Source of the DNA: Acanthopagrus schlegelii
Lineage: Eukaryota
DNA: 64,000 nucleotides
Reading direction: 5' to 3'
Assembly (NCBI GenBank): GCA_041753875.1
Contig: CM085492.1
Span: 12,255,563-12,319,562 of the forward strand
Made by a program: the position numbers and the translations under genes. The notes below the pieces were generated by a model. That model was not told where the DNA came from and searched no databases. It was given only the letters and a program-made list of their open reading frames with translations. Shown in pieces: positions 1-64,000 of the stretch; the stretch's first letter is position 1; every line of letters starts with the position of its first letter.

Positions 1-13
1 CTGTTTTTTTCAG

Positions 14-43228: not shown

Positions 43229-43340
43229 TTTGGCATGGGCCCCAAAACCCACATCAGTTCAGCTTTCAGTACGTTGAACCTGGAGACCAATGATGAGGAG
43301 AAGAAAAGGAGCATGATATCAGCTGTAATGGTGAAAGGAG
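43229..43340 (+). CDS. tep1: tep1 exon; FGMGPKTHISSAFSTLNLETNDEEKKRSMISAVMVKG
   Basis: Acceptor ccctcag| and donor g|GTACTA. Confidence 0.65.
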
Positions 43341-43464
43341 GTACTAAGCAAAACTAAAACTGTTAGTTACTTCTCTTTCTTCAAGCATATCCATGGCTAC
43401 TTGAGCTACTGTTACTGTTTTGATTTGTATTGTTTATCATCCAACGTCTTGTATGTTCTTTCAG

Positions 43465-43547
43465 ACTTTGTCGTGTGTGGAGACAGGGAGGGCAACATGT
43501 GGTTCATTCAGCCTCCGGAGCCTTCCACATGGAGCAACAGAAAACCT
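43465..43547 (+). CDS. tep1: tep1 exon; (D)FVVCGDREGNMWFIQPPEPSTWSNRKP
   Basis: Acceptor ctttcag| and donor cct|GTAAGA. Confidence 0.65.
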
Positions 43548-43714
43548 GTAAGAGCTCAGACACTGTGAAGAACAAATGTAAAAAGAATGTATATTGTTGT
43601 ATCGTAAAATGTATCAAATCTGGCATTCAGACTCTCACATAAAGGTCCAATGTGCAGGATTTAGTGACATCTTCATAGCTATGGTTTTTTTTAATGATGA
43701 TGTTTTATCCCCAG

Positions 43715-43819
43715 GCCCATAGCGACAGGATCAGTGTGCTGAGACTCACTGACCGCGTCATCATCTCCGCCTCCCACGACAGGACAGTGAAGCTGTGGGA
43801 CAGAAAGACAAAGAAGCAG
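43715..43819 (+). CDS. tep1: tep1 C-terminal WD exon; AHSDRISVLRLTDRVIISASHDRTVKLWDRKTKKQ
   Basis: Matches human IHSGSVTALHVLPELLVTGTLDRDVKLWDRPSMQ. Confidence 0.95.
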
Positions 43820-44729
43820 GTACATCACAGTCTTCAAAGAACAGTCTGACATTTTAGGAGACATACTTACTCGCTCCATGGTGGATAGTTAGATGACAAG
43901 ATATTTGTACGCTGAATACAATGGCATCAGACAGTTGTCTAAGCAATGACTTAACTGCTCTGTCCAAAATTAACAAAGTTAAAAGTCAAATGACACATAA
44001 GGTATTAACTATTGAGCTTTAGTGGTGCTGGTAGATGGATTTTATTAATTTTGGACAGAGGGAGGGTAACCGTTTCCCCCGTTGCCTGTTATTATGCTAA
44101 GCTAAGCTAACTAGCTGCTGCCTTTAAGAAGGTGGACCCATCTTCTCATCTAACTCAAGTCAAGAAGGTTTTCTTGTGCAATAGAAAAACATTTTCCTTA
44201 TATGTAAATCTAATACGTTAAAAATCTTGGGTGTTTTTATTTATTTGTTTCAACTTATTTATTTTTTATCTTGCAAAATGCAAAGGGTAAAGAATAACAA
44301 AATAAATATAAAAGTAAATGAATTTAGACATGAATAAAATTAATGCAAAATTAAATGGAAACATGAATAAATAAGTGGATTAATACAAAGGCAAGTAAAT
44401 ACAGAAGCAAATTAAAACATAAATATCAATGTATGTCATATTTTGTACATTAATTAATACATTAATTTTTAATAAATGGTTTGTACATTTAATGGTTTAG
44501 TTTTGTATCTGTAAAAATAATATCTTTTGTTCCTTCATATGTATTGAAAAACTGTATATATTTAATAATACATTTGCAATGTATTATAAAAAAATATCAG
44601 ATTACATTTTCTCTATATATTGACAAAATATATTGGTTATTGACATTTTTCTTATATTTTAAAAAAGATTAAACACAGTCTAAGACATTAGTCTTTCAGT
44701 GACCTTCTGTTCTCTATCTCTTCCTCCAG

Positions 44730-47612: not shown

Positions 47613-47799
47613 AGGGAGGAGTGAAAACAACCGGCAGTATCAACACGGGACGGACAGAAAGTCGACAAATCTTCACTAACAACACCAAACAGCGGCGGGA
47701 TAGCTTAACACTGAACAACTGCGGGATAACTCAACACTAAACAACTGCAGCATAACTTAACACTTACGTTACACAAGGGCGGACGTAAAGGAGCTAATG
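47613..47799 (+). CDS. putative first coding exon of the APOL-domain gene: mostly 5'UTR, ending with the start codon ATG (47797-47799) followed directly by donor GTGAGT
   Basis: Acceptor tttctcag| at 47612 and ATG|GTGAGT at 47799/47800. The next exon (47954) begins in phase 0. This is an inference; a possible upstream non-coding exon ends at 47446 (cag|GTGAGT). Confidence 0.3.
47690..47775. repeat. ~26-nt tandem repeat x ~2.5 (gatagcttaacactgaacaactgcgg / gataactcaacactaaacaactgcag / cataacttaacact)
   Basis: Read directly; it lies in the putative 5' exon just upstream of an ATG|GTGAGT junction. Confidence 0.6.
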
Positions 47800-47953: not shown

Positions 47954-48019
47954 GAGCGATACGACAACCTGGATTTGGACCTGGAGTGTGATGGAGGAGG
48001 AGGAGGAGGAGGTGTAGCT
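47954..48019 (+). CDS. APOL-domain gene exon; ERYDNLDLDLECDGGGGGGGVA (phase 0-0)
   Basis: Acceptor tttgacag| and donor gct|GTGAGT. Contains a (GGA)7 run encoding poly-Gly. Confidence 0.4.
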
Positions 48020-49484
48020 GTGAGTAGATATCTTCTGATTATGAGCATAATCTAACTTTAGCCGGTTAACGTTTGTGGTTAAAGGTTTACTGTGTTGGAG
48101 TCACAGTTTTTCTCCTCGCTGAGGTCGGATGAGTAGAGTTCATCGATCCGACCTAAATCCATGTGACTGAAACTCAATACAGGCTTCTAATGCACAATGC
48201 AGTCCATAGGTATGTGCTCAGTGACATATTTTTTGTTGCTCTGGCTCGAAACTCCAACACAATGGACTTTAATATCAAATAATAAAAGATTAAATGAATG
48301 CTGACTTTTACCTTTAATTGGAGTGTGCTGTGTAGAAACTGTCCTTTCTTCATGGCCGGATTAACCTTCTAGGTTGCTCCAGGGCAAACATGTGCCATTG
48401 GGCCCCCTATAGCCCCCCTACACCAGATTAGCGATTAACCAGTGATGGAATGTAACCAAGAACATTTATTCAAGTACTATACTTAAGTGCAATATTAGTT
48501 TACGTATACGTACTACTTTTTTCTGTGTCTGTTTTCAATTGTTCACGATAAGGAGTGAGCATTTGTGGCAGCAGGCGCCACCCAGAGAAAAGGCGCAGGT
48601 CCCAGCATCTTTTATTTCCGCTTCACTGTCGCTCTTTTTTCTTTTTCCTGGCCTAGTCAATAATATTCACCATATTTTTGTCTTCTACGGATCATGTTGT
48701 GAACCGACATCGTCCATGCTCTGATGTCCTGATGTCAAATTAAAACGAAATAGATGGTAAACCGTAAAAGGGCAGATGTCAAGATATTGTTTTCATAGAG
48801 ACAACGTCACACGTGCAGCCTTTTTTCTCTCAGCACACAAGTGCTTAATTAATAAATGCCCCTGAGCACACAGCCTTACATTTTCTGCCTGAAAAAATGC
48901 TATGACATTGGCCCAAAGGTTACTTGTTACTTTGCAGATTGCATACATCATCAGAGCTATAAAAAAAAAAGGCATTATAGTTTTGGTTTATTATGATCTA
49001 TCAGTAATGCCTGTGGGTGCTGTTTTATGTGATTCTTAAACAGGTTAATAGTATTATGATCAATTTTCCCTGGGCTAGAAGACATAATTTTCACATAAAT
49101 TAATATTCTCATAAATTAACTGTCATCAAGGTTTCAAGTCCAGACATGAAACCAGCTTCAAGTCCAGGCTTGAAATCTCGATGTGAAACTGGACTGTGAG
49201 AAGTAAACCAGTCAGTGCTCTCATCCATAAATCCATTAGAAAAGTGTTGGTCATTTGCAGCGTCTTTTGCAGTTCAGTCTCCATGTGAAGCAAATATGAT
49301 GCTGCTGACTCACAGGTCTCTGCAGTAGATGTTTGCCCTGTGTTAGTCACTCATTTTGAATGATGCCGGTATGTCAGAACTGAAACCACTTCAGAGATTA
49401 GTCTTATGTAATCATCCTGAGTGGGTTTTACATGTATATCATTCACTAAATGTGTTTAATTTTCCACTTTCACCTCCCATGCAG

Positions 49485-49556
49485 CAGAAAGTGGCAATAT
49501 TTGGTGGGATGTTCAAAAGATCCTCCAAGATTGCTGAACCATCCGCGCAATCACAG
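49485..49556 (+). CDS. repeat-array exon, type A (basic); QKVAIFGGMFKRSSKIAEPSAQSQ
   Basis: Track ORF 49356..49568. Acceptor catgcag| and donor cag|GTGATG, phase 0-0. Confidence 0.55.
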
Positions 49557-49851
49557 GTGATGTTGTAGTTTTATCCTTGTTTAATTTAAATGTAGAACCT
49601 AACATTTAGTAAACCAGTACACTGAAAAGAGATCTCTCGTGAAAAGCTTATATTGACTATTAATCCCTGATACTAGTGTTTAAGATGGTTACTCATACTC
49701 ACATTGTTGACATGTATAACAATAAAATTGCTATAAGCGCTATCTTGTAAAACAAGTAGTTAGAATTCAGAAATGAAACGTAAAATAAAATGTGTTTATG
49801 ATTTGATTTGCTTCCGCATTTACTCACATCAGTTCTGTACTGACTTTTCAG

Positions 49852-49917
49852 GACACATTATCAGTGAACAGCGACCTTTCAAAGAGCAGCGACAGTCTGA
49901 CTGACAGCAGCACAAAG
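49852..49917 (+). CDS. repeat-array exon, type B (acidic/Ser); DTLSVNSDLSKSSDSLTDSSTK
   Basis: Acceptor ttttcag| and donor aag|GTGATG, 22 codons, 0-0. Confidence 0.55.
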
Positions 49918-50045
49918 GTGATGCTCACTATTTAATTTTTCTTTTCTAATCTTATGTCTGGTCATCACCAACTGTGATCGGCGTGTTATTATTAAATGAC
50001 AGTGTTTCTTGAGCATGTTGACAGTAAATTACATTCATCTTTCAG

Positions 50046-50114
50046 GAGAAAGGAGGCGTGTTGAAAGGAATGTTCAAGAAGACGACCAAAACCGCCAAAG
50101 AGGGCCAATCACAG
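50046..50114 (+). CDS. type A; EKGGVLKGMFKKTTKTAKEGQSQ
   Basis: Acceptor ttcag| and donor cag|GTTTGT, 23 codons, 0-0. Confidence 0.55.
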
Positions 50115-50485
50115 GTTTGTAGTGGTTTAACTACAGTTTAACTGAAGTTATTAGTAGATGGCTTATTGTTAAAGCCATTTATATTTATCAAACACATGCT
50201 AAACATTTGCTGGTTCCAGCTTCTTAAATGTGAGGATTTGGTGCCATTTTTCCCCTAAAAATATCACTGTTAATTCAAATATCTGTGGACTTTTAAGTCT
50301 CTAAAAGCTCTTTTGTCATTACTCTAAAAAGAATACTGACTTGAGTACTCAAAATGTGTTTTGAATCTGTCAACAAAATGGGAACAACTAAAAAAAGGAT
50401 TGTCTCAAAATGATTAAATATTTTAATTTGTGTCTCCACAATTGTATAGAAATATGAGAGGTTAATCGTTTTTTATCATTTATAG

Positions 50486-50557
50486 GACACCCTTTCACTA
50501 CAAAATCCTGAACTGTCTGTCAGTAGTGACAGCTTAACAGACAACAAGTCCTCAAAG
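50486..50557 (+). CDS. type B; DTLSLQNPELSVSSDSLTDNKSSK
   Basis: Acceptor tatag| and donor aag|GTGAGT, 24 codons, 0-0. Confidence 0.55.
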
Positions 50558-50645
50558 GTGAGTTAACTCTCTGCTCTGTGATATTTTCCCACGCAGAATT
50601 TTGTCTTGTCAGTCTTTAAAGCTAATCCTTTCTCTACACTTTTAG

Positions 50646-50717
50646 GAGAAATCAGGTGTGTTCGGTGGGATACTGAAACGAGCTGGTAAACCAGGACACG
50701 CCCGGAGGCCTTCACAG
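50646..50717 (+). CDS. type A; EKSGVFGGILKRAGKPGHARRPSQ
   Basis: Acceptor tttag| and donor cag|GTGAGA, 24 codons, 0-0. Confidence 0.55.
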
Positions 50718-50837
50718 GTGAGACAGAATCTTCTGTTATATGTCAGAGATAATGTATACCATTTGAAAACACAGTGGTCAGCTTAATGCCAGATATGTAA
50801 AATGTCTATAATTGTGATGTAACATTGTGTGTTTCAG

Positions 50838-50900
50838 GATCTGTTGGACAACGACTTTACAGCCAGTAACGACAGTCTGTCTGAAAACACTGCAACTAAA
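50838..50900 (+). CDS. type B; DLLDNDFTASNDSLSENTATK
   Basis: Acceptor tttcag| and donor aaa|GTGAGC, 21 codons, 0-0. Confidence 0.55.
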
Positions 50901-51705
50901 GTGAGCCTCATCAGCCAAGTTTTTTATTTAAAGAAAACAAAGAACAAAGTCTTTGTTCTTCAATGCTCTTTTTAAATATTTTGTTAATAAAATCACTGTA
51001 TGTCAATCAACCAACAAAAATTGGGGAAGATTCAAAAGAAGTCTTGTTACAGTGGCAATTTTGTATTTTTTATTGGTAGTTTTTATTATTTGTAACTATT
51101 TATTTGTAAGTTTTTGTTTGAGCTCACCAAACTAAATTCCTGTCAACTATGTTTGATGGCACCAAAGTTTTGAATCTTGAATTTGATTAATGTGTGTTAA
51201 ATTATTATCAAACAGTCAAAGTAAGAACACATGTCTGTTGCTGTTATTTATTTAACACTTATCAAGTGAAGAATCACATCACTTTGTGTCCAAGAGATGT
51301 TTCTTAGGACAAAAAACTACTTTACCAACACTGAGTGTTCAGTATTGTCAAGTTGGTATTGAAGAATAGAAACATACAGTACATGTGAGGGATTTTGCTT
51401 GGTGTTAATTAGGGACGTATGATGGTCTTTCTGATGTTGTTCAGCCTACAGTAGGCGTGTGGACCTCAACTCAGGTTTGGAAGGGTGTGTTTTTGTTTTT
51501 GTGGGTGTTTGGAAGTGTGAGCTGAACCTGCTAGCATCAGCAGTATGAAAGAAATGCTGGCTCCTGCGTGTAAAGCACAAAAGGCCTGCCTGTCCATCTG
51601 ACAGCTGCATCAGTTCAAAAGACAACAGAGCTGGTTTGATTTTATTTTATTTCAACAAACTGTATATATGTATATATGTGTCTTTTACGATGTGTCTTTT
51701 TCCAG

Positions 51706-51771
51706 GAGACAGGAGGAGTGTTCAGTGGGATGTTTAAAAAAAAGCCTTTTGGAGCGAGGACACAATCTCAG
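51706..51771 (+). CDS. type A; ETGGVFSGMFKKKPFGARTQSQ
   Basis: Track ORF 51676..52050 frame. Acceptor tttccag| and donor cag|GTGAGA. Confidence 0.6.
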
Positions 51772-51861
51772 GTGAGAGTTGTGCATCTTACTCTACCTCT
51801 GTTACATCATTTGAAAATAAACAATAATAATCAGGTGGGGACATTTGTTTCTTGCCTTCAG

Positions 51862-51930
51862 GAGGATTTGTCTGCACCAAGCGAGCTCTCAGGCAGCACT
51901 GACAATCTCTCTGTGAATAGCAACACTAAG
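51862..51930 (+). CDS. type B; EDLSAPSELSGSTDNLSVNSNTK
   Basis: Acceptor ccttcag| and donor aag|GTAAAG. Confidence 0.6.
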
Positions 51931-52555
51931 GTAAAGTTTGTGAAAGCTTCACCTTACATCAAACATACAAACTGTCCTCAACTTGTGATATTAAAGCTGC
52001 CATGGCAGTTCCTAGCAGCACAGTTCTTCCTTGTTTTCATTCTAAACTGAAGCTGCACTCATGATACATCTCTGTTTTGGTTTACATTTGCCCCTTTGTC
52101 CATCCACTTCAATTTTGAAATCTGAATAACTGATTTAAGCACGCATTTCATGTTCTAGTGCAACTTCTACCTGCACCATCAACTATTTTAAACATTGGTG
52201 CTTTGAAATGAATAATGAATGAAGTCATAATACTTGAATTTATATTTATTTCTTCTTTTACTAAAGTATAAGATCTTAATATTCTTCCATGTCTTATACT
52301 TTTTCGGAGCTGAACAGTTACATTGAATAATGTGACTGTCCCCAATTGTTTGTACAGAGCTGAAAGCATTGGATGAGAATTTGTGAGATGTGTGTTTCTG
52401 TTTTTGTTTTGATGTGTGTTGGGAAGGATGAGAGGTAAAACTTCATCCATCAGCATTTTGAAGAAAGTACAGGCTGCAGTGTGACATCCCTGCCCATCCA
52501 TCTGCCACCTGAAAAATCTCTTAGTAATTCTTTCTTTTGTTTGACTTTTTTACCA

Positions 52556-52627
52556 GGAGACAGGAGGGATCTTCAGTGGGATGTTTAAAAAATCCCCCAA
52601 GCCTTTTGGAGCAACAACACAGTCTCA
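52556..52627 (+). CDS. type A; ETGGIFSGMFKKSPKPFGATTQSQ
   Basis: Acceptor ttaccag| and donor cag|GTGAGA. Confidence 0.6.
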
Positions 52628-52712
52628 GGTGAGAATTGTGCTTCTCACTTGTACCACTGCATCATTAGGAGACAATAGTAAATGAAAGGGGATGTTGTTT
52701 TCTCGCTTTTAG

Positions 52713-52781
52713 GAGGATTTGTCGGCACCCAACGAGCTCTCAGGCAGCGCGGACAATCTTTCTGTGAATAGCAACACTAAG
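52713..52781 (+). CDS. type B; EDLSAPNELSGSADNLSVNSNTK
   Basis: Acceptor cttttag| and donor aag|GTGAGG. Nearly identical to 51862..51930. Confidence 0.6.
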
Positions 52782-52857
52782 GTGAGGAACACTTTATTAA
52801 ATTCCTCTATTTTTGGCAAAACTTCATACACTGTTCTCATGTGAATTTTGTTTCCAG

Positions 52858-52923
52858 GAGGGAGGAGGGATTTTTAGTGGAATGTTTAAAAAAAAGCTTC
52901 TTGGATCAAGGACACAATCTCAA
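52858..52923 (+). CDS. type A; EGGGIFSGMFKKKLLGSRTQSQ
   Basis: Acceptor gtttccag| and donor caa|GTGAGC. Confidence 0.6.
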
Positions 52924-53022
52924 GTGAGCATACGATATATATACATCTCACCATTAAACCATGTGACCATAAATTATTAGAATTAAAAATTAATTGACTG
53001 GCTTTTTTTTCTTGCCTTGAAG

Positions 53023-53091
53023 GATGATTTGTCTGCTCCCAGCGAGCTCTCGGGCAGCACCGACAATCTGTCTGAGGGTAAAGACACTAAG
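53023..53091 (+). CDS. type B; DDLSAPSELSGSTDNLSEGKDTK
   Basis: Acceptor ccttgaag| and donor aag|GTGAGG. Confidence 0.6.
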
Positions 53092-53596
53092 GTGAGGTTT
53101 GTCAAAACCACCCACGCCAATCTTCAAGCGACACAACACTTTAAGTGCAATCCATATTCATAAATGTGCTCATATTAAAGGTGAAATAAATGATATTTGC
53201 TGTCATTAGACATGGCACTAGAACACGAGCATCTCAGACCAAAACAAATGTGTGCTTCGCTCACTCAGTAGAGTTGAAACTCAGAAGAAACTGTCAAACT
53301 ACATAGGCAGTGCTGATCAAATATGAATCAAGCCTCTGTTGCTACAAAGTCTTCATGCAAATGTTTTCAGAAACATACTTTTGTGAGCTGTTTTAGCTTT
53401 GATATGAGAAAGTTCCTCACCAGGCCACCATGTTGAAAACGGAGAAATTCACATTACAGGCACACACAGGCAGATGTGACAACATTTTCTTCTCAGGATG
53501 CCATTTTTACTTTACATAGCAAATGCCTGTTTACCCCTATATACATGTTCAAAATCTTATATATTTAACCTTCAACATTTGGCTTCATATTCTCAG

Positions 53597-53656
53597 GAGA
53601 AAGGAGGAATCTTTAGTGGTGTGTTCAGAAAAAAAGTCACCAAATCTCAGTCTCAG
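53597..53656 (+). CDS. type A; EKGGIFSGVFRKKVTKSQSQ
   Basis: Acceptor ttctcag| and donor cag|GTAAGA. Confidence 0.55.
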
Positions 53657-53896
53657 GTAAGATGATAATAATAAGGTTTTCAATGCTGATGTGAACCCTT
53701 TTTTGGTGGTGTAAAAAAGATAGGGATCAAACCAGAGATGTTGAGAATAAAGTACGAATGCAATATGTTGCAGCAGTTTTCACCATCCTTTTTCCCTTCA
53801 GTCATTGAGAAACATGGTTGATAATTCACACATTTAATAAAACACTTGAGCATTTTCGTCTTGGTTAGTACATTCTGATTGCATCTCTCTGTTTAG

Positions 53897-53962
53897 GATG
53901 ACTTGTTTGCCGATGGGGAGCTCTCTGCCAGCAGTGACAGCCTCATAGAGGCGTCTTCAAAG
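53897..53962 (+). CDS. type B; DDLFADGELSASSDSLIEASSK
   Basis: Acceptor gtttag| and donor aag|GTAAGA. In-frame with track ORF 53903..54130. Confidence 0.55.
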
Positions 53963-54158
53963 GTAAGAGGTGAGGCTTTTCGCCTCTTATTGTCTTTTCA
54001 CTTGGACACGCACTGCATCAACACTAAGACATATACAGGAAATATATCAGTTTGTAACTTCCTTAAATTGTTTGCATTACAAAGGACTTTACAGCCAGTA
54101 AATTGCACTTCTGGTCATGTTCTGAGATGAATGACATGCTGATAATGTATTGTAACAG

Positions 54159-54224
54159 GAGAAGGGTAAGACTGAACAATCAGGAGATCTAAAGGAGAAT
54201 ACAGAGAAACCAAAAGCCAAGCAG
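54159..54224 (+). CDS. charged exon; EKGKTEQSGDLKENTEKPKAKQ
   Basis: Acceptor taacag| and donor cag|GTGGGT, 0-0. Confidence 0.45.
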
Positions 54225-54357
54225 GTGGGTTGTTATGCTAGAGCAACTGCATATCCTCTCTAAATAAGATCTGCTGTGCTGATACAGTGAGGGTCAGGGT
54301 TACAATCCGTTTATTTTTGTGACAGTAACAGTATCTTTGTGTTTTGTGTTTCTTCAG

Positions 54358-54405
54358 AATGGTTTCAGTGCGATGATGAAGAGCACATTCTACACTGAAA
54401 AACAG
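54358..54405 (+). CDS. exon; NGFSAMMKSTFYTEKQ
   Basis: Acceptor ttcttcag| and donor cag|GTGAGA, 0-0. Confidence 0.45.
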
Positions 54406-54595
54406 GTGAGAGGTGGCAGACTGTTCTTTTGATATTTGCTACATGTCATTGGTTCATCTCTTCCATTAATTGATTAGTATATCTGGCAGAAAAGGCAAAA
54501 ACATTGTATGAACTCATGAATTAACCCACATGATGTACTATTGTTGCTATTGTCTCCTGTTTATAATCTACATTACATTTTGGCTCCATGTGCAG

Positions 54596-54658
54596 GAGAA
54601 GAACTCTGACTCTGAGGAGATATTGGACAATGGAGATGACCAGCCCAGTCACAAACAG
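54596..54658 (+). CDS. exon; EKNSDSEEILDNGDDQPSHKQ
   Basis: Acceptor gtgcag| and donor cag|GTTTGT, 0-0. Confidence 0.45.
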
Positions 54659-54758
54659 GTTTGTTAAGTTTTGTGTTTTAGTGTCAATCAGCAGTTTATT
54701 CTCTGAATGTGCTTCTTATTTTATGTCGTTTACTCTGTTTATTTTGTTTCATATTCAG

Positions 54759-54812
54759 AAAAAACTCACTGATGCGATGACAAAGCTGAATCCATTTCGA
54801 TCTGCAAATAAA
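54759..54812 (+). CDS. exon; KKLTDAMTKLNPFRSANK
   Basis: Acceptor attcag| and donor aaa|GTAAGA. A paralogous exon lies at 55921. Confidence 0.5.
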
Positions 54813-54906
54813 GTAAGAAATTATTACATTTTCTTTTGAGAAAATGATTATTGAAAGAGATTCTATGTGTTTTTCATGAAGTATGGCTTTATGTGTTCCC
54901 TCTGCA

Positions 54907-54978
54907 GCATGAGAAGCAGGCTGACTCAGATGACGAGGATCCACCTGTGAGCAGTGAGAAGTCATCAGGCAACAAACA
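54907..54978 (+). CDS. exon; HEKQADSDDEDPPVSSEKSSGNKQ
   Basis: Acceptor ctctgcag| and donor cag|GTGCTT, 0-0. Confidence 0.45.
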
Positions 54979-55920
54979 GGTGCTTTAATATTTACTTGTT
55001 CCTGTTTCATTGTGTTAAATTCGGCATCGGGGTTTTTTATGCATTTAACCAGTTATTTTTATTCAGTGCACACCTGTCACACTGAGAGGCAGAACAGCCT
55101 GTACAGTTTAACTGTTATTACTCAAGACGAAGTTTAAAACTTCATAATAACCATCATCAAAACGGGTACATTTATGGTTAATTGAACTTTAGTTTCTAGT
55201 TAATAATAATTGTAGAGGTTTATAAATGTAAGTTGCATCTTTGCCTTGTCTAGTCATATAATGTTTTTAGATGAACTACACAGTATTTATTAACCACATA
55301 CAAAGTATTTTAAATATCAGTAGCAACTTTACAATAAACACTTGCTGATTGAATGGTTTATATAGCATTTCTCTTTTTGTTAACAAAAGCAAAAAACCCA
55401 TTATGGTGTTACTGATAACATTCAGGAGAAGGGACAGACTTGACCAATATAGAAACATGGGTATCACGTGATTCCAACAACATTATACTACTGACTGACA
55501 AATCTTATTAGAAGCTGGAACCATCAGAATTCTTACACAGAATAAAACAATTATTTTTGAAAACCTTTTCAGGTTATTGATTCACAATCATAATACTGTT
55601 TTTTAAGGAAAATAAATTATTTTATTCTACATTTTTCCTCAAGCTTTGTATTTATTTTAATTTCTTTATGATTTGTTTATAGTCTAGAGTCATGAGTCAG
55701 AAGTGAGGTATGTGATCCTCAGGCTCTCTCTGCAGTTCAGCTTCACTTGTCATGCCTGGGCTTGTTGAGGTTGTCTTTCAAGTTACATGGAACAGCTCCA
55801 AATACTACAGACCAGGCATAATTGTTGTACAGTACTGTGGGGTAACATTGACCAGTATGTCATCTCGGCTGACTTATTGGTGTTACTTATTTCCGATGTT
55901 GTGCCCCACCACCCCCCCAG

Positions 55921-55974
55921 AACGCCATGGTTGGAGCCATGTCCAAGTTGAACCTATTCCGCTCTGCAAATAAA
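55921..55974 (+). CDS. exon; NAMVGAMSKLNLFRSANK (paralog of 54759..54812)
   Basis: Acceptor cccccccag| and donor aaa|GTAACT. Confidence 0.5.
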
Positions 55975-56999
55975 GTAACTATGCTGTTGATTGTGTTTGG
56001 CAGTGGTGGAGGTGTCTGGTAATGATGTTGTAGGTGACGGGAAGTGTCTGTGGTGGTCATGGGTCTGTGATGGTGGTGATGGTTCAATGTTTCATTTTAG
56101 AAAGTTGTGATGATGTGCTGCAGACGTAAAGGACCATTTCCGTGATTTTTGCCTGTTGTACCCAGTTTGCCACAAATAACATTTATATCGAGACCCAACC
56201 ATTTTACAAAACGAAGTTGATATGATTTGAATTTTGGGGTATTGGTCTAACTGCTTAAGGCAACCATTGTTTTACATGTATTTCAGTAAAATATGAAAAT
56301 CAATATCTCTTCACAATTTTTGGCAACAATTAATACAGGATTGATGTTTTACTGTGATAAATAACACAACTAAAGTACAGTAGTTTCAAGAGTCTGCCTT
56401 TTGATTTTCATACCATTCAGAAATGAATGAAAACCAATGGCTGCCAGTCACAGAGTTAAAGGAACAGTTAACACAAAATGAAAATTCAGTCATCATCCAC
56501 TCCCATGCTGATGGAAAATCAGATGAAGTTTGTTAATCTGCAAGGAGCTTAAAGAGTTGCAGCATTTTCTTCAACAACTAAAGTAGTTGGGGACTAGTTT
56601 TAAAACGAAAAAACCAACAGAATATATTAAATGGCTTCATACAGCTCGTCAGGTGTAATACAAGTCTTCAGAAGCCTAGAGATCCCAAATTGATTTGATA
56701 AGGCGTAATTTACAGCATAATTTACAGCATAATTTGCAGCTACAGTGAGCTGCTAAAGCATTACCTTAAACCCAGTTTACAGTGTGAAGTAAACTTTGTC
56801 AGTTGTTTAGATGAATGCTGCAACCCTGTTCTGCTGTCAAGCTCCCGAAATGTTTTGTGGACTACGAAACAGCACCTGACTTTCCATCATTTCTTGGGTA
56901 ACTGTTCCTTCAAACTCGCAAAAGCAAAAGTGGTCCTTTAATGGCTGCACAAGTAATCAGATATTGGTTGATACAATTGATTTCATGTCCTTTGATTAG

Positions 57000-57065
57000 A
57001 AAGACACAGAAGATACTGAGAAGCTCACGGAGGACGAGCAACGAATGGAAGAGAAGCCGAAAGTG
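57000..57065 (+). CDS. exon; KDTEDTEKLTEDEQRMEEKPKV
   Basis: Acceptor gattag| and donor gtg|GTCAGT. Confidence 0.4.
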
Positions 57066-57297
57066 GTCAGTCTATTTTTTGCATCACTCATGAGTCATCA
57101 GTGACTGCACGCACACACACACACACACAGCTGAGCTGATCAACTTCTGTCAAAAATACCCTCTACTCTCATACCTCCTCTTCCCCCACCTTCACCACAT
57201 CCTCCTCATCCCCTTTAAATCCTGCCTGCTCACTGTCATACGTCCCCGTCTTCCTGCTCCACCACACTGTGTGACTCTGTCTGTGTGTCCTTGTCAG

Positions 57298-57375
57298 GTC
57301 AAAAGCAACATGATCCAGCAAGAGAGAAAAGACAGAAGTGAAACACCAACGGTCCCGCCTAGACCAACTGAAGAG
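57298..57375 (+). CDS. exon; VKSNMIQQERKDRSETPTVPPRPTEE
   Basis: Acceptor ttgtcag| and donor gag|GTCTGT. A paralog lies at 57766 (..PVVPARPSEE). Confidence 0.45.
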
Positions 57376-57483
57376 GTCTGTATGCAGTTGAACACAGCTC
57401 AGTGACATGTGGTCCGAGTGAGACTCTTCTCACCTCTGCTCTGTCTGTTATAATGTGTTGTTAAGGCTGCCATCTCTCCACAG

Positions 57484-57543
57484 GAGATGAAGAGGACGTC
57501 AACATACAACAAAGGAAAACCAATAGGAGCTGAGGATAATAAG
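57484..57543 (+). CDS. exon; EMKRTSTYNKGKPIGAEDNK
   Basis: Acceptor ccacag| and donor aag|GTAAAG. Confidence 0.45.
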
Positions 57544-57765
57544 GTAAAGTTTACCCTTCTCTGATTTAGAAGGTGTTCTGTGGGTTGTCTGCTTATTTCT
57601 GCTTAATCAGAGTTTGAATATGTGAAGGTATCTGTATGAACACGAGTAAAATCAGTTAATGGTTCATTTATTTTCCAGTAAGCAGGAGGCCATTATGAAT
57701 GTGCTTTAAAATGTAAGGCTTTCACTGGAGTCTGTTTTTTTTCCCATTTATTTTGTCCTCTGCAG

Positions 57766-57846
57766 AATAACAAGGATATGACCTCCAGAGAGAAAAAAGC
57801 AAAACCTGAAAAAACTCCAGTAGTTCCTGCCAGACCATCAGAAGAG
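57766..57846 (+). CDS. exon; NNKDMTSREKKAKPEKTPVVPARPSEE
   Basis: Acceptor ctctgcag| and donor gag|GTAGTT. Confidence 0.45.
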
Positions 57847-57965
57847 GTAGTTTAAGCTTTCAGTCTCTAGAAAATAAGTGCTGTTGGTATCAGTTTGGAG
57901 CAGATGTGTATCGATGCTGCGTTATTAGCTCTGTGGTTATAGAAACTGCTCTGGGTTGATTTCAG

Positions 57966-58013
57966 GAGCTAAAAAGAGCAGACAGACAGTTAACGCAGAA
58001 CAGAAACCATCAG
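57966..58013 (+). CDS. exon; ELKRADRQLTQNRNHQ
   Basis: Acceptor tttcag| and donor cag|GTACTG. Confidence 0.4.
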
Positions 58014-58299
58014 GTACTGACATGTACACACAATATTAGACTGATGTATTAGTTGACTGATATTTTGGACCAGTATTGTTTGTTTAAACTGGATATCAGC
58101 TCATGGATATAAAAAGGTTACAGGCCCCCTTTGTCAAAAATCACTTTTTGACCTTGAATGTGGAAAAAGATGTCAGTGCAGAGTTTGACTCTAGAAGCCT
58201 GTTTTTACGTACCCACATCTGCTTTTTGTGACATTGCAATTATTCAACTCAGACGAGTATGATTGGCAACAAAAAACACAGTGCAAGTGGACTTTTCAG

Positions 58300-59000
58300 T
58301 GAAATGGGAGACACCTTGTTTCAAGCAGTCAGCTAAGATCCTCAGGCAGGAACTTGCTAACTGTTCCCAGCTCACGCCTTAAGGAAAGAGGGGACAGAGC
58401 GTTTACTGTCAGGGCTCCTCGGCTGTGGAACGACCTGCCTGAGGAACGACAGCTGAGTACATGAGTGTCCTCTTTAAAATCACTTTGATAGGGTTAGGGT
58501 TATTAGGACTTATTTTTATTGAAAGGCCCTCCTGACATTACACTTAAGACTTGCATGGCTGTTCTAAATGTCCAGGAGGTGCGGGAGTGAGGCACCAATG
58601 ATCTCTTCTGCAGCATTCACTCACTATGCGCTGCAGAGTTTTACAATTAGAGGTGCTGCAAATTCCAAACCATGCAGTGATGCAGCTGGTGATGCTTTCA
58701 ATGGAACAGCGGTAGAAGGAGCACTTGATGGGTGCGGGGCTCTGACCCTCTACAGATTGTGGAGATCGTAGAGGCGCTGCTGTGCTCTCTTGGCAAGTGA
58801 TGCAGTGTTGTTGGACTGGGAGAGGTCTTCTGTGATGTGCATGCCTAGAAATCTGGTGCTGCTCACTCTCTCCACAGCAGAGCCATTGATGGTCAGCGGG
58901 TGGTGTTGGATCCTGTTTCCCGGACGTCAGTGACCAACTCCTTCGTTTTGTCTTCATTTAGGGAGAGGTTGTTGTCACTGACCACATCACTTTCATGCTC
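58300..59000. repeat. teleost interspersed repeat fragment (carries the ..RAFTVRAPRLWNDLPEE.. coding remnant on + and the SIESITSCITAWFG.. / TLQRIV.. remnant on -)
   Basis: Plus strand 58370-58460 encodes KGDRAFTVRAPRLWNDLP, a motif recurrent in fish genomes. The minus ORF 58544..58957 matches the well-known CITAWFGxC..LQRVV repeat-encoded peptide. It sits inside an intron of the surrounding gene. Confidence 0.55.
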
Positions 59001-59581
59001 ATGCCTGGATACAGGCCCCTGGGGACAGTCGCATTCATTGGATTTTAAACAAGGGAAAAAAGTAGATGTAATTTTAACAAATAGTTAGAATCAGAGCATT
59101 CAGTTTATTCATTTTTTTTTTTAAATCCAAGCTGTTTCAAGTTATCTCTGTTTTTTAAGAGAATAACTGTAATGAAAGACCCTGAACAGTTTCTGGCATG
59201 AAAATCTTAACATTTTTAGACTTAATATTTGCATAAAACTTTCGCTGTAAAACTAAAAATAATATCACCATATGCTTTTAGATGTCAAAGTCTGGCATGC
59301 AGAAACACACCTTATGCAAACCATGACATAGAAGTGGGGCGGCTGTGGTTCAGGAGGTAGAGTTGATCGCTGATCTTATGGTTGGTGGTGCAATCACCAG
59401 GTCCTCCTGTCCTCAAGTTGAAGGATCCTTGAGCAAGACAGTGAGCCCCACATTGTGTGTGAGTGGGTGGCACAAAGCTAGTCAAGTGCATTGGTAAAAA
59501 GTGGTTTATCAGTGCTGTCATTTGCACTTTGCTAAAACATTTATAGTATAATTTGAATCTAATAAATATAATTTGCTGCAG

Positions 59582-59662
59582 AACCAATCAGATGATGAAG
59601 GCCTCAAAAAAGATGAATCTGCTGAATCCAAAGACGAGACGAACTATACAGAAAGCAAAACA
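59582..59662 (+). CDS. exon; NQSDDEGLKKDESAESKDETNYTESKT
   Basis: Acceptor ttgctgcag| and donor aca|GTAAGT, 0-0. Confidence 0.5.
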
Positions 59663-60034
59663 GTAAGTTTATCTCTTTATTAGTGATGGGACAGATTATT
59701 ACTGTACTAATCTTTACTATAAGAAAATAGTTTGATACACACAGTGAAATATGTGTGTTTATTTGTATTTGTGCGTCTATTTGTAGTATAAATCCACATT
59801 TGCTGCAACGTGCAGGTGAAAAACAAGCATGAGTATCTGCTTCGGTTATTCAGCCTGGATCTTATCATTCCACTTCCTGCTGCTTTCTACTCAGTTCTTT
59901 CATGCCAGAGCCATGCACAGATGTAGTTCTTTAATTCAGTTGTAAGTCTGCTGCAGCTATAATGAAATGTAGTTCTTCCAGTTATTGTTTTTCGTGTCAG
60001 CTGACAAATTTTCACCATGCCATTTCTTTTGCAG

Positions 60035-60088
60035 ACCAAGGTGAAAAAACACAAGCATAATCCGTTCATGCCGCGAGTTGCAGCCAAG
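60035..60088 (+). CDS. second array, type C; TKVKKHKHNPFMPRVAAK
   Basis: Acceptor ttttgcag| and donor aag|GTATGT. Confidence 0.55.
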
Positions 60089-60204
60089 GTATGTGACAGT
60101 GTGTGTTTTTCTGGATTTTGCAGTTCATGTAGAGTTGTGAAGACATTTATATTTTAGACTCTCATCAACTGGTCATCATCAACACTTCTTGTTGTTTGCT
60201 TCAG

Positions 60205-60291
60205 GCTTCGTCTGATGATGAAGGGCTGAAAGAAGATGATGATTCTTCATCCAAAGAGGAAAAGAATGATGAGGAAGACAAAGCTGAGGAG
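60205..60291 (+). CDS. second array, type D; ASSDDEGLKEDDDSSSKEEKNDEEDKAEE
   Basis: Acceptor gcttcag| and donor gag|GTCTCC. Confidence 0.55.
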
Positions 60292-60452
60292 GTCTCCAGC
60301 TTTTTTTTTGTGCTATTTTTGCTTGTAGATTGATTTAAATATACACTGCTTGATTTTTACACATACAGTCAGCAGGACCAAATATTCATGTTACTGTCAT
60401 TACACATATTTAAGGTCTCTCTTCCTCAAAGTGACCAAATTTTTCTTTTCAG

Positions 60453-60503
60453 ACCAAACTCAAGAAACCTAAGAGACACAATCCCTTCATGCCTCGGGTC
60501 AAG
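60453..60503 (+). CDS. type C; TKLKKPKRHNPFMPRVK
   Basis: Acceptor cttttcag| and donor aag|GTAACA. Confidence 0.55.
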
Positions 60504-60629
60504 GTAACATCCAAACATGTACAAACTAGTTGTACTTGTAAATGAACAAACCTTTATGTTACTGTCATGTTTTGTACATGTTTATTTATTTCATTGTTAG
60601 GTTTACATGTTTGTTGTTGTTTACCTCAG

Positions 60630-60722
60630 GCTTCGTCTGATGATGAAGGTCTGAAAGAAGAAGATGATTCTTCATCCAAAGAGGAAAAGAATGACGAGGA
60701 GGGAAAAGACAAAACAGAGGAG
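60630..60722 (+). CDS. type D; ASSDDEGLKEEDDSSSKEEKNDEEGKDKTEE
   Basis: Track ORF 60567..60767 frame. Acceptor cctcag| and donor gag|GTCTTT. Confidence 0.55.
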
Positions 60723-60899
60723 GTCTTTAAATTCTTTTCCTTTTGCTGCATTTTGCTTGTTGATTGAATAAAATGTTCATGGTTTGTTTTTGACAATGAA
60801 AAGTTATCAAGAACAATTGTTCATTTTACCTGAAAAACTCAGAATGTGACGCGTATCTTCCTCAAAGTGATACTGAAACCATGATTTTCTTCTTTTTAG

Positions 60900-60950
60900 A
60901 CCAAAGTCAAGAAACCGAAGAGACACAATCCCTTCATGCCTCGGGTCAAG
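60900..60950 (+). CDS. type C; TKVKKPKRHNPFMPRVK
   Basis: Acceptor ctttttag| and donor aag|GTAACA. Identical intron-flank sequence to 60453..60503. Confidence 0.55.
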
Positions 60951-61045
60951 GTAACATCCAGACATGCGCCTCTGTGAAGGACTATCAGTTAAAGCATTTC
61001 TACTTTCAATTTTAAAAAATCTGTCTTTGTGTTGAATGGTTACAG

Positions 61046-61096
61046 GGCAGAGTTAAAGCGAGGGGAGAGGGTGGAGCTGCAGGCAACACAGCAGAG
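61046..61096 (+). CDS. exon; GRVKARGEGGAAGNTAE
   Basis: Acceptor ttacag| and donor gag|GTAGAG. Confidence 0.45.
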
Positions 61097-61126
61097 GTAG
61101 AGAAAATAAAAAGCTCTTGAGACGAT

Positions 61127-61130
61127 CTTT

Positions 61131-61166
<36 letters not shown>

Positions 61167-61168
61167 TC
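61127..61168. repeat. (TTTC)n microsatellite, ~10 units
   Basis: Read directly from the sequence. Confidence 0.9.
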
Positions 61169-61835
61169 ACTCACTCTTCTTTCAATTCTTATATCTTCGC
61201 TCATTGCCTTTCCCTTCCCCGTCTGTATGAGTTATTCATCCACCATACTGAAGTATTGTAGTCTTGCTCATTGTGGTTCAGGATTACAACAGGTCTGTTT
61301 CAGTCACCTGAGCCCTCCCTGTAAACCACCTCTGTCTTTTGTTTGTCTCCAGGGCGTTCGCTTATCTCCCAACAGAGATTGTTATAGTCATCCTGCGTTT
61401 TGTTGCTGTTGTTGTGTTTTTCCCCTCCACTGTCGACACTGAACCCACCCCCACACCTTCACTCCACCAGGCAGTTTTTGTGCATGCCCATAGCTTGGAA
61501 GATAATGTGGGTTTAAGTTGCAATGTGCCCAGACTTGTTTCTCTGCTTCCGTTTTCAATGGGTCCATGGAAATTTTTGTCCCTTTTCACTTCTGCAAAAA
61601 CAGCACAAATATGTCAGTACAGTCAGAATCCCTTTTACCATCACTTCCTCCTCTTTATCTGAGCATGTACAGAGAAAAAGTGAAACTGAGGATATGTGAC
61701 ATTTGATGTATTAATTGTATTGTACTGCTGTGATATACACTTCAGCAACACTTTAGACAAAGGAAAACAAATCTTGTTATGATTTTTTTTATGATAATGT
61801 ATGATTTTAAAGCAGTATTACCTCTATTGTTTCAG

Positions 61836-61913
61836 AATGAAGGTCAAAAAAGGACCTTGTTTGACCAGCTGGATGACTACCGTATTGACCCGGCACAGGG
61901 TGAAGAAGGACAG
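61836..61913 (+). CDS. exon; NEGQKRTLFDQLDDYRIDPAQGEEGQ
   Basis: Acceptor tgtttcag| and donor cag|GTTGGT. Confidence 0.5.
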
Positions 61914-62039
61914 GTTGGTTTCTGAAGAAAAATATACCATCACAAGTAACATTTCAGTATAATCTGATACCACATTATTAACCGTTTGATATGCAGCCAT
62001 AAACATGCAAATCAATACAAATGTAATGGTGTCTTTCAG

Positions 62040-62079
62040 GATGTGGAGGATCTCATGGAGTGGTGGGACACAGTGGAGT
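62040..62079 (+). CDS. exon; DVEDLMEWWDTVE (phase 0-1)
   Basis: Acceptor ctttcag| and donor t|GTAAGT. Confidence 0.5.
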
Positions 62080-62793
62080 GTAAGTCACAAATTATTTTTT
62101 AGGCGAGATATTTAGTTTTCACATCCATAATATTACCAAAGGTTTGCGGATATAACCTGTTTTTGTACTTCAGTGTGCTGTTTCTTATGTTTGTTGCCCC
62201 TAAGTTCCAAATAAAGAAAATGTTTACAGCGTACAACTATAGTTAAGAAAATAGTCTGGGAAAGACCCTTTTCTGTTCCGACAGTTAGGGAAAATTTGAT
62301 TTAATTTCCAACTATTTTAATAATCAATTATTTGTTTCAGTCATTATTCAGGTAAAAATGTCAAACATTTGCTGGTTCCAGCTACTTTTCTTTGTCATTT
62401 ATTATAGTAAATTAAGAGTTTTTGGGTTTTGTACTCATGGTTGGATAGAAAAAACACATTTTTGGCACTGTAGAAAGTAAAAGGTCTAGGCTACTCAGGA
62501 AGGAAACGTAATGTGACCAAGTTGCTCCTTGGTAGGGAACACCAAAGTTCAAAAACTTTGTAGGCTTTTAAAAAAAATTTTTTCCAGATGAGTGCCTTGG
62601 ATTTTTCTCTTTCTTGTATTCCAACATTAGTGTTGGGCCTCTCTGATGTGTCTGTAAATCTGAAACCAGAGGATCAGAGCCTTTCTTTGGTTCTGGATGT
62701 TTTTTGTTTTTTTCTGATGTCCACATACTTTTGTCCATGTAATATATGCAACATTATGAGAAAGATCAATGTAATTCCTTATTCCTTCTCCAG

Positions 62794-62845
62794 CTTGGGA
62801 AGACACGGCTCAGGATGATGACATGACAGAAAAAGAAGAGGCCAA
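62794..62845 (+). CDS. exon; (S)WEDTAQDDDMTEKEEA (phase 2-2)
   Basis: Acceptor ttctccag| and donor aa|GTAAGT. In-frame with the neighbouring exons. Confidence 0.5.
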
Positions 62846-63296
62846 GTAAGTGTATGCTCATATAGGTGATGATGCAGTATTTCACTCCCACATTTTATAA
62901 TGTCTTCCATGACCCCAGTATAATGAACGAGAGAAAGAAACTCTGGATATTACTCTGTCATTACTCTGGATAATCCACAGAATAAGCTGTCAGCAGTTTT
63001 CATAGAGACTATCTCTTCAGAGAGAGAGCTCCAAAGAGAAGGGTTAACAGCAAGCTTTATGGATTATCAGAGTGATCAGAACTTGAGTGACAGAAGAGAC
63101 ATTACTGTTTTCTAAATGCAGTTTGTCAATGCTTTTTGCAACAGAAAAATACAAGTATTTTCCTCTATTATATTGGAGAGGAAGCTGGATATTTAAAAAA
63201 CTTGGTCAAATTAAACCACCACCATCTGCATGGCTAAATACAAACGGGTTATAAGAGTTATAGTCTGTATAATTCCTCTTAACTTGCTCCTCTCAG

Positions 63297-64000
63297 GGCT
63301 TTTGCTGTGACCGCAGAGAAAGTGCAGAAGGGCATCCGTGTTTTCAACAAACTGTTCTCGGAGCGCGCAGAGAGCCTCTGGCAGCACGTCATCGACCTCA
63401 ACACCATTGCAGATGGCCTGGACAAATTCAGCAAAAAGACCAAGATCGCCCAAATCACTGGTGGCTCCACCAGCGCCATCGGAGGCGTGGCCACGATTGC
63501 CGGCCTCGCTCTTGCACCAGTCACCATGGGAACCTCCTTGATTGTGACAGCAGTGGGACTGGGTGTTGCCACGGCAGGCGGTCTGACATCAGCAGGGGCC
63601 GGCATCTCCAACCAGGTAAACAATTCGATGGACCGCAAGAAGGTGGAGAAGATCATTAAGGATTATCAGGACAAGATGGTGGACCTCAACAAGTGCCTGA
63701 AGTTCATCAAGCAGGGGATTGAGAACCTGAAGAAGTTTGACCTGCTCAAGATGAAGGACAACGCTTACAACCGTGACTTCCCTGTGCTCACTGCTCAGTT
63801 CTATGAGGACGGTGCCATGGCAGGAAAGGCGATCCTCATCAACGCTAACGAGATCATGCGTGTGGTGCAGATCGCTAACGTGGCGGGCAGCACGGCCGCC
63901 AGAGCGGTCCAGATCGCCAGTATGGCTACTGGTGTACTCACCGGACTTTTCGTAGGTATGGACATTTACTTTGTGGCCAAAGACTCGAAAGAACTCAAGA
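63297..64000 (+). CDS. Apolipoprotein-L (APOL) domain terminal exon, partial; runs off the window. (K)AFAVTAEKVQKGIRVFNKLFSERAESLWQHVIDLNTIADGLDKFSKKTKIAQITGGSTSAIGGVATIAGLALAPVTMGTSLIVTAVGLGVATAGGLTSAGAGISNQVNNSMDRKKVEKIIKDYQDKMVDLNKCLKFIKQGIENLKKF...
   Basis: Acceptor tcctctcag| at 63295-63296. A long open frame continues to the window end. It carries the APOL-family hallmark ...LDK..KK..IA.ITGGS.SA.GG..TIAGL.LAP.T.G.SL..TA.G.G.A.A followed by a coiled-coil-like KK.EK...D.QDKM region, comparable to the human APOL1 LADELDKVHKGCNIANVVGGSTGAVGG..TIAGLILAP.T.G.SL segment. It is not on the ORF track because there is no stop within the window. Confidence 0.75.

Follow-up and report, generated by a model that had tools for sequence, protein, structure and literature searches.

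The last two acidic and NPF exon pairs of a short exon array in the fish Acanthopagrus schlegelii arose within one gene by a tandem duplication, whose period is about 425-447 bp. The array lies in a stretch of 64,000 nucleotides (contig CM085492.1, positions 12,255,563 to 12,319,562 of the forward strand), hereafter called the window, and all coordinates given below are those of the window. We consider the account as a whole probable, namely that an apol1 exon pair was duplicated long ago, with EH-ligand valency as the inferred part of the account. The case is clean and datable: a disordered region gained copies of a short linear motif by small symmetric exon duplication. Moreover, it occurred in a gene family that is studied for human kidney disease.

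Exon array

Sequence reading together with tblastn confirmed that three basic exons of 54, 51 and 51 nt alternate with acidic exons of 87 and 93 nt. All five exons listed by the first-pass annotation of the window were found, but the list had overlooked a third acidic exon, located at 59582-59662 and more diverged than the others. This exon (acidic exon 0) was detected when the window was searched with the exon peptides by tblastn, and it shows 54-58% amino acid identity to acidic exons 1 and 2. It is conserved in a related species (locus L001), in Nibea albiflora (L004), in Pempheris (L005) and in Melanotaenia (L006). Once acidic exon 0 is counted, the array consists of three acidic and basic pairs:

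59582-59662, + strand, acidic exon 0 (81 nt, phase 0; peptides NQSDDEGLKKDES... and NQSDDEGLKKDESAESKDETNYTESKT)
60035-60088, + strand, basic NPF exon 1 (54 nt, phase 0; peptide TKVKKHKHNPFMPRVAAK)
60205-60291, + strand, acidic exon 1 (87 nt; ASSDDEGLKEDDDSSSKEEKNDEEDKAEE; net charge -11; four S/T-x-x-D/E sites)
60292-60452, + strand, internal intron of unit 1 (161 nt)
60453-60503, + strand, basic NPF exon 2 (51 nt; peptide TKLKKPKRHNPFMPRVK; net charge +7)
60504-60629, + strand, junction intron between units 1 and 2 (126 nt)
60630-60722, + strand, acidic exon 2 (93 nt; ASSDDEGLKEEDDSSSKEEKNDEEGKDKTEE; net charge -10; four S/T-x-x-D/E sites)
60723-60899, + strand, internal intron of unit 2 (177 nt)
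60900-60950, + strand, basic NPF exon 3 (51 nt; peptide TKVKKPKRHNPFMPRVK)

The basic exons share the pattern TKVKK.K.HNPFMPRVK, with a net charge of +6 to +7 each. One NPF-containing peptide of the array is KKPKRHNPFMPRVK. Orthologs of NPF exon 1, which have the form ...HKHNPFMPR.AAK, are found in L001, L002 (another fish), L004 and L005. Of the three copies, it is NPF exon 3 to which the single NPF exon found in other ray-finned fishes aligns. Every exon of the array, as well as the exon that follows it (61046-61096), lies between an AG and a GT and is in phase 0 (81, 54, 87, 51, 93, 51 and 51 nt). The same borders and phase 0 are retained in six other fish loci. The donor sites of the acidic exons are weak and non-consensus (GAG/GTCTCC and GAG/GTCTTT, the slash marking the exon end).

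Host gene

Judged from its sequence, the host of the array is the teleost gene "apolipoprotein L, 1" (apol1), and the array lies in its N-terminal region, which is predicted to be disordered. The gene lies on the + strand, from about 47.6 kb to past the end of the window. The exons downstream of the array are as follows:

61046-61096, + strand, next exon after the array (GRVKARGEGGAAGNTAE; single copy)
61836-61913, + strand, exon in agreement with the orthologs (NEGQKRTLFDQLDDYRIDPAQGEEGQ)
62040-62079, + strand, exon with the conserved WW motif (DVEDLMEWWDTVE; phase 1 at its end; W190 and W191 invariant)
62794-62845, + strand, exon with the peptide (S)WEDTAQDDDMTEKEEA(K) (W197 invariant)
63297-64000, + strand, start of the large ApoL-domain exon, cut off by the window end

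A protein search with the 156-aa spliced peptide returned only four matches and no annotated fish protein, and the gene was therefore identified from the downstream ApoL exon. The spliced C-terminal part matches the Pfam family ApoL (PF05461) at residues 63-291 with E=1.6e-28 and 100.4 bits, against a cut-off of 25.9. The downstream part of apol1 has 211 homologs; those that carry a name are teleost apol1, with 73-92% identity over the full query. Annotated orthologs have the same acidic and NPF exons immediately ahead of the ApoL part. Furthermore, the junction at which an NPF exon joins the G[RK].. start of the 61046-61096 exon is present in these orthologs and in L007, a contig described below. 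Collinear orthologous loci were found in L001 and L004-L006. In Melanotaenia, TEP1 lies upstream of apol1, which matches the WD-repeat ORFs upstream of the gene in the window. Pfam assigned no family to the N-terminal exon arrays, and an Rfam scan across the entire window gave no match. A candidate Cys-rich terminal exon near 61353 (GVRLSPNRDCYSHPAFCCCCCVF...) was rejected, since the orthologous proteins splice the 61046-61096 exon to the 61836 exon.

The N-terminal region of apol1 is built of many very short phase-0 exons, in which basic or hydrophobic modules alternate with acidic, serine-rich ones. Further upstream in the same gene, at about 49.5-54 kb, seven pairs of GxFSGMFKK-type and DLS..S.DSLS-type exons were found, which do not contain NPF. 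These are presumably what the first-pass annotation had called the first amplification. A Monopterus protein joins the first exons of this region to the acidic and NPF exons, and hence both arrays belong to one gene.

Extent of the duplicated unit

The two copies of the duplicated unit were delimited by self-BLASTN:

60186-60519, + strand, copy 1: 19 nt of the upstream intron end, acidic exon 1, internal intron, NPF exon 2 and 16 nt of the junction intron start
60611-60966, + strand, copy 2: BLASTN match to copy 1

Alignment of the copies, which had been proposed as a check of collinearity, bore it out, with 78.4% identity over 357 columns (E=3e-76). The exons are much alike: acidic exons 1 and 2 are 94.3% identical at the nucleotide level, and NPF exons 2 and 3 are 96.1% identical (49/51 nt). 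The internal introns of the two units share 67.1% identity with 16 gap columns, and their alignment score of 65 compares with 19 +/- 3 for shuffled sequences. They are thus homologous, and the array is the product of a true collinear DNA duplication. The introns upstream of acidic exons 1 and 2 are 48% identical, which amounts to unalignable. The earlier proposal that the pair was duplicated together with its introns is supported as far as exon order, phase, splice sites and the internal intron are concerned.

The splice-site context had also been described as nearly identical between copies. The junction quoted for this is exact: a 43-nt repeat, made of 33 nt of exon followed by gtaacatcca, stands at 60471-60513 and again at 60918-60960, where no match is expected by chance. 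However, the likeness covers only the exons, roughly 16 nt downstream of the basic exon and roughly 19 nt upstream of the acidic one. At the start of the junction intron, 16 nt match the intron after NPF exon 3 at 15/16 positions, and at its end, 19 nt match the intron that precedes acidic exon 1 at 16/19. When duplication breakpoints were sought in the junction intron, neither of these end matches exceeded the best shuffle, and the middle of the intron was unalignable. Tandem Repeats Finder did not report the repeat of about 430 bp because the copies are too diverged.

Judged by these borders, the copied segment began in the 3' end of one intron, spanned the acidic exon, internal intron and NPF exon, and reached into the first part of the following intron. 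Since all exons of the array are symmetric (phase 0-0, with lengths that are multiples of 3), the reading frame is kept after duplication. The duplication gives the protein one further NPF motif and one further acidic cluster.

Age of the duplication

L001 is collinear with positions 51249-63181 of the window at about 87% identity and has the same three pairs. In neighbor-joining (NJ) trees each unit of the window groups with its counterpart in L001, and both groups, (w1,R1) and (w2,R2), have 100% bootstrap support. Orthologous introns of the window and L001 are 86-95% identical (88% for the internal intron of unit 1), and acidic exon 2 is 98.9% identical to its ortholog. The duplication therefore predates the split from the L001 species, whose locus is about 13% diverged. 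The non-coding distance between the paralogs is 0.39, compared with 0.10-0.15 between the window and L001, 0.42-0.53 to Pempheris and 0.51-0.59 to Nibea. By this measure the duplication is several times older than the split between the window species and the L001 species, and its depth corresponds roughly to the divergence from the families of Pempheris and Nibea, that is, to divergences among spiny-rayed fishes. NPF exon 1 is an older duplicate, because its synonymous sites are saturated relative to NPF exon 2 (pS 0.93).

The first-pass annotation had read the array differently, as a segmental duplication of very recent date that had copied the pair and its introns, perhaps with copy-number polymorphism. 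Such a reading could draw on the exact 43-nt repeat, which crosses an exon/intron border, on the 94-96% identity of the exons and on the modest synonymous divergence of the paralogous exons, although the dS of 0.22 comes from just five differences. A recent duplication would show near-identity also in unconstrained sequence and would be absent from close relatives. Instead, the internal introns are 67% identical with indels, the upstream introns are at 48% and do not align, and both units are present and orthologous, with 100% bootstrap support, in a species whose locus is about 13% diverged. In addition, the non-coding distance between the paralogs is about three times that between the species. 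We regard a very recent origin as extremely unlikely.

A falsely expanded repeat in the assembly, which had also been raised, has nothing in its favor other than the tandem arrangement itself. Of the aligned positions, 22% differ between the copies, which are further set apart by several indels, and three NPF exons are found both in the independent L001 assembly, which comes from another species and has the same structure, and in the chromosome assembly of Nibea albiflora. An artefact of this kind is practically inconceivable, and we treat the duplication as real and old.

Selection and gene conversion

Why are the exons so similar if the duplication is old? Between the paralogous exons of the window, dN is 0.027 whereas dS is 0.22 (5 synonymous differences). 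Exon likeness thus reflects mainly purifying selection at the protein level, under which the copies have been retained. We also considered strong synonymous constraint in the tiny NPF exons. Orthologous dS was compared between the window and Nibea or Pempheris, with the ApoL exon of apol1 as the reference; it was 0.42-0.86 in the NPF exons versus 0.52-0.53 in the ApoL exon, and this candidate was rejected. A block of 15 nt at 60241-60255 (DSSSK) is shared by acidic exons 1 and 2 of the window but is missing from acidic exon 1 of both L001 and Nibea. This suggests that acidic exon 1 possibly contains a short gene conversion tract.

Copy number among fishes

The number of NPF exons varies among fishes, and it is between 1 and 3 in spiny-rayed fishes:

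Three NPF exons: the window, L001, Nibea albiflora (L004) and L002
Two NPF exons: Pempheris (L005) and Eleginops
One NPF exon: Melanotaenia (L006)
One NPF exon, in annotated proteins: cyprinids, loaches, catfishes, salmonids, pike relatives, bony-tongues, Albula, sturgeon and paddlefish

The state with three pairs might have been gained repeatedly, or the copies might have been homogenised by conversion, in which case the copies of the window would not correspond one-to-one to those of Nibea or L002. The occurrence of 1, 2 or 3 copies in different spiny-rayed fishes would fit such a history. The four units of the window and L001 fall together in 51-71% of NJ bootstraps, and a pairing of the two Nibea units appears in 32-56%, but this bootstrap support is weak. 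Internal introns are 67-79% identical within species, compared with 47-59% between the window and Nibea. Nevertheless, the unit 2 intron of Nibea resembles that of L001 unit 2 (z=10.8) and not that of unit 1 (z=1.2). The 15-nt block can be read in both directions: its presence in both acidic exons of the window suggests conversion, while L001 and Nibea have the same 15-nt deletion in acidic exon 1, which speaks for a single old unit 1. Other markers specific to a unit are an 11-nt deletion in the unit 1 intron and KRH versus KKH in the NPF exon. In the window, the internal intron of unit 2 resembles its paralog (z=17.5) and the intron of the single Pempheris unit (z=18.1) to the same degree. 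Taken together, we find repeated gain or homogenisation possible but somewhat doubtful.

Splicing of the array

The exons of the window species are predicted, and the evidence on splicing described here comes from orthologs. L007 is an intronless contig of 323 nt in a Trichinella assembly, in which acidic exon 0, NPF exon 1, an acidic exon, an NPF exon and the next exon are joined exactly at the predicted borders. It is evidently a contaminant that derives from a spliced fish apol1 cDNA. Two NPF exons are likewise present in one protein model of Eleginops (P0010). Some annotated models skip NPF exons, as does that of Nibea (P0005).

Tandem exon duplicates are commonly mutually exclusive alternatives, and the duplicated exons could be used in this manner, with one NPF exon in each mRNA. 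Many annotated orthologs have a single NPF exon, and the weak, non-consensus donors of the acidic exons are typical of regulated exons. However, two NPF exons occur together in a single molecule both in L007 and in P0010, so that the orthologs do not keep to one duplicated exon per transcript, and with phase-0 exons joint inclusion preserves the frame. Mutually exclusive use is very unlikely, in our judgment.

The array is also prone to misannotation. In several fish apol1 models, the start is placed at the Met within NPF-M-PR, or the upstream exons are split off as a separate gene. As a result, the motif array is missing from the predicted proteins.

Putative function of the NPF exons

NPF (N132, P133 and F134) is invariant in 26 ray-finned fish sequences, and all three copies in the window carry it. 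In the alignment of these 26 proteins, N-P-F and the three tryptophans of LMEWWxTVExWED are the sole invariant residues upstream of the ApoL domain. Every NPF among the 124 proteins that were fetched stands in a [KR]-rich-NPF-[ML] context, and a paralogous ApoL clade lacks NPF. The basic residues around NPF vary between species, while N-P-F is constant from sturgeon to spiny-rayed fishes. In the AlphaFold2 model of the Eleginops ortholog P0010, residues 1-121 have a pLDDT of 31-51 and no secondary structure. The pLDDT rises locally to 51 in block 71-80, which includes NPF at residues 75-77. The model thus places NPF in a region that is predicted to be disordered and accessible.

NPF peptides are the canonical class I ligands of EH domains, and both flanking residues and the number of NPF motifs influence binding (PMC3570524, PMC13282721). 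EH domains of the EHD type favor NPF followed by acidic residues (PMC3570524, PMC13282721). In the window, NPF is followed by M-P-R-V-[KA], and the acidic cluster begins 6-8 residues further on; the EHD-type signature, in which acidic residues directly follow NPF (e.g., NPFEEEEED), does not occur. Because NPF is followed by M-P-R rather than by acidic residues, a putative partner of the Eps15 or intersectin type is more plausible than one of the EHD type.

We infer that the duplication multiplies a putative EH-domain-binding motif and, next to it, an acidic serine cluster of the CK2-like type. The NPF short linear motif would bind EH domains of the endocytic machinery, of the Eps15 or intersectin type, and the acidic exon would supply CK2-type phosphorylatable clusters beside it. 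The odds are about even that each pair adds one putative EH-binding motif and one phosphorylatable acidic cluster. More pairs would then mean higher valency, and the phase-0 exons would allow valency to be adjusted by exon skipping.

The basic exon may have another role, either as a nuclear localization signal (NLS) or as a polybasic and hydrophobic patch with affinity for acidic membrane lipids, which would be neutralised by the neighboring acidic, phosphorylatable exon. KKPKR in NPF exons 2 and 3 fits the classical monopartite NLS pattern K-[KR]-x-[KR]. The charges also agree with such a role, as the basic exons carry +6 to +7 each and the acidic exons -10 to -11 each, and the upstream GxFSGMFKK and DLS..S.DSLS pairs alternate in the same way without NPF. 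Still, both alternatives are a poorer fit, given that NPF stays constant whereas the basic residues change, which points to the tripeptide and not to charge as the constrained feature. We consider an NLS or a lipid-binding patch unlikely and prefer the EH-ligand reading.

A broader model can be outlined, although it is speculative and rather unlikely to hold in full. The tail of teleost apol1 would be an evolvable EH-ligand array, with class I NPF and class II-like WW/S-W motifs, that links the membrane-inserting ApoL domain to the machinery of endocytosis. Repeated duplication of exon pairs, short gene conversion limited to exons, and exon skipping would then tune its valency in spiny-rayed fishes. 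Class II EH-binding peptides contain FW, WW or SWG (PMC3570524). The invariant WW / S-W motif of apol1 resembles these peptides.

Comparison with known systems

Within animal genes, tandem duplication of exons was reportedly described by Kondrashov and Koonin in 2001 and by Letunic, Copley and Bork in 2002. The apol1 array is similar to such cases in that adjacent homologous exons have the same order and orientation, symmetric phase, splice sites and a homologous intervening intron. It differs in that the unit consists of two unlike exons, one acidic and one basic, rather than of one exon, and in that the copies are co-included in apol1 orthologs rather than mutually exclusive. The duplication is a new example of a well-known process, an ordinary route for the growth of disordered regions.

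Several EH-binding endocytic proteins contain multiple NPF motifs, including epsins, synaptojanin (3 NPF), Rabenosyn-5, MICAL-L1, Rab11-FIP2 and EHBP1 (PMC13282721, PMC3570524). As in apol1, several NPF motifs are arranged along a disordered region with acidic clusters nearby. Unlike those of EHD ligands, the NPF motifs of apol1 are followed by M-P-R/Q and lack the EHD-type signature. Another difference is that in apol1 the putative ligand array is joined to an ApoL membrane domain.

Zebrafish apol1 has served as a model for human APOL1 nephropathy (PMC4492502, PMC4854397). Apol1 of zebrafish and other teleosts is the orthologous gene and shares the ApoL domain, the basic NPF exon and LMEWWxTVExWED. 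However, the NPF exon (KKKPKNPFMPQ) is single in zebrafish and other otophysans, whereas the window species has three, each with an acidic exon. Human APOL1-6 also share the ApoL Pfam domain. Human APOL1 has an N-terminal signal peptide (PMC8557400) and not an array of NPF and acidic exons, and by this description it is set apart from fish apol1. The name "apol1" in fishes does not imply one-to-one orthology with primate APOL1. For the cell biology of ApoL proteins in fishes, the invariant NPF offers a concrete handle, and the amplified motif is a reasonable lead.

Candidate neighbouring genes and the likely 5' end of apol1

Resemblance of ORFs points to one candidate gene in the first kilobases of the window and to another upstream of apol1, and reading of the sequence gave a candidate start of apol1 itself.

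about 1-4000, + strand, ORFs of a candidate PARP-type gene, at the window start
about 39000-44000, + strand, ORFs of a candidate WD-repeat gene, upstream of apol1
47797-47799, + strand, candidate apol1 start ATG, the last bases of the first exon (aatg|gtgagt)
about 47955-48022, + strand, next apol1 exon, ERYDNLDLDLECDGGGGGGGVA, in agreement with the N-terminus of Monopterus apol1, MDRYDNLDLDLECDGG

It is likely that apol1 begins at the ATG at 47797-47799. In Melanotaenia, the upstream neighbour of apol1 is TEP1, with TROVE, NACHT and WD40 domains.

Upstream exon pairs and a further NPF exon

Besides the NPF exons, the same gene carries an upstream array, and a small exon with a further NPF follows it.

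49484-53962, + strand, upstream apol1 array of seven successive pairs of short phase-0 exons
54759-54812, + strand, small exon with a further NPF, KKLTDAMTKLNPFRSANK
55927-55974, + strand, degenerate copy of the 54759-54812 exon, MVGAMSKLNLFRSANK, about 1.2 kb downstream, with NPF changed to NLF

The A-type exons of the array follow the pattern (E)xGG[IV]FSGMFKK...SQSQ, and the B-type exons follow [DE]DLS.xSELSGSxD[NS]LS...K. At the DNA level, the middle three pairs of the array are tandem duplicates (79% between 51697-51932 and 52548-52783; 74% for 52851-53106 in the same comparison). This array is presumably the amplification that the first-pass annotation had counted as the first. The small exon and its degenerate copy share 81% DNA identity over 43 nt.

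Possible exchange between acidic exons, and conserved intronic blocks

Acidic exon 1 of the window (60205-60291) has a 15-nt block at 60241-60255, encoding DSSSK. The orthologous exon 1 is without this block both in the related species' locus L001 (9653-9730) and in Nibea (L004, 13660-13737), and acidic exon 2 carries it in all three. Because the block is present in exon 2 of all three but in exon 1 of the window only, the sequences suggest that, in the window lineage, exon 2 converted exon 1 over a short tract confined to the exon, or else that two identical deletions occurred independently.

Both internal introns (60292-60452 and 60723-60899) contain the conserved block TCTTCCTCAAAGTGA close to their 3' end. 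Another intronic block, GTCTTTAA.TC.TTTCCTTTTGCT, is conserved 3' of the acidic exon in several species, and the donors of the acidic exons are weak (GTCT..). These blocks, together with the weak donors, may be splicing-regulatory elements of cassette exons. Further downstream lies a simple repeat.

61129-61168, perfect (TTTC)10 microsatellite in the intron 3' of the exon 61046-61096

Probably incomplete gene models and a likely contaminant contig

In the annotated or assembled fish apol1 proteins P0006, P0007, P0011, P0014, P0017, P0018 and P0019, the first Met is the M of NPF-M-PR. In Pempheris (L005 1-9415), the upstream exon array is annotated as a separate gene of 582 aa, which ends 9 nt beyond the acidic0 exon. 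Truncated or split models, which lose the motif array, are the probable explanation. A 323-nt contig (GCA_001447435.1, JYDK01004035.1), which carries the annotation 'hypothetical protein T06_16480 [Trichinella sp. T6]', consists of a fish apol1 fragment without introns, in the order acidic0, NPF, acidic, NPF and next exon. It is most likely contaminating fish cDNA within a nematode assembly.

A conserved tryptophan motif

62040-62079 and 62794-62845, + strand, exons of the LMEWWxTVExWED motif

The three tryptophans of this motif are invariant, and the motif is kept even in bichir and in the paralogous ApoL clade. It is predicted to form a helix (pLDDT about 70-76). Its WW and SW are similar to the FW, WW and SWG that PMC3570524 names as class II EH-binding peptides.
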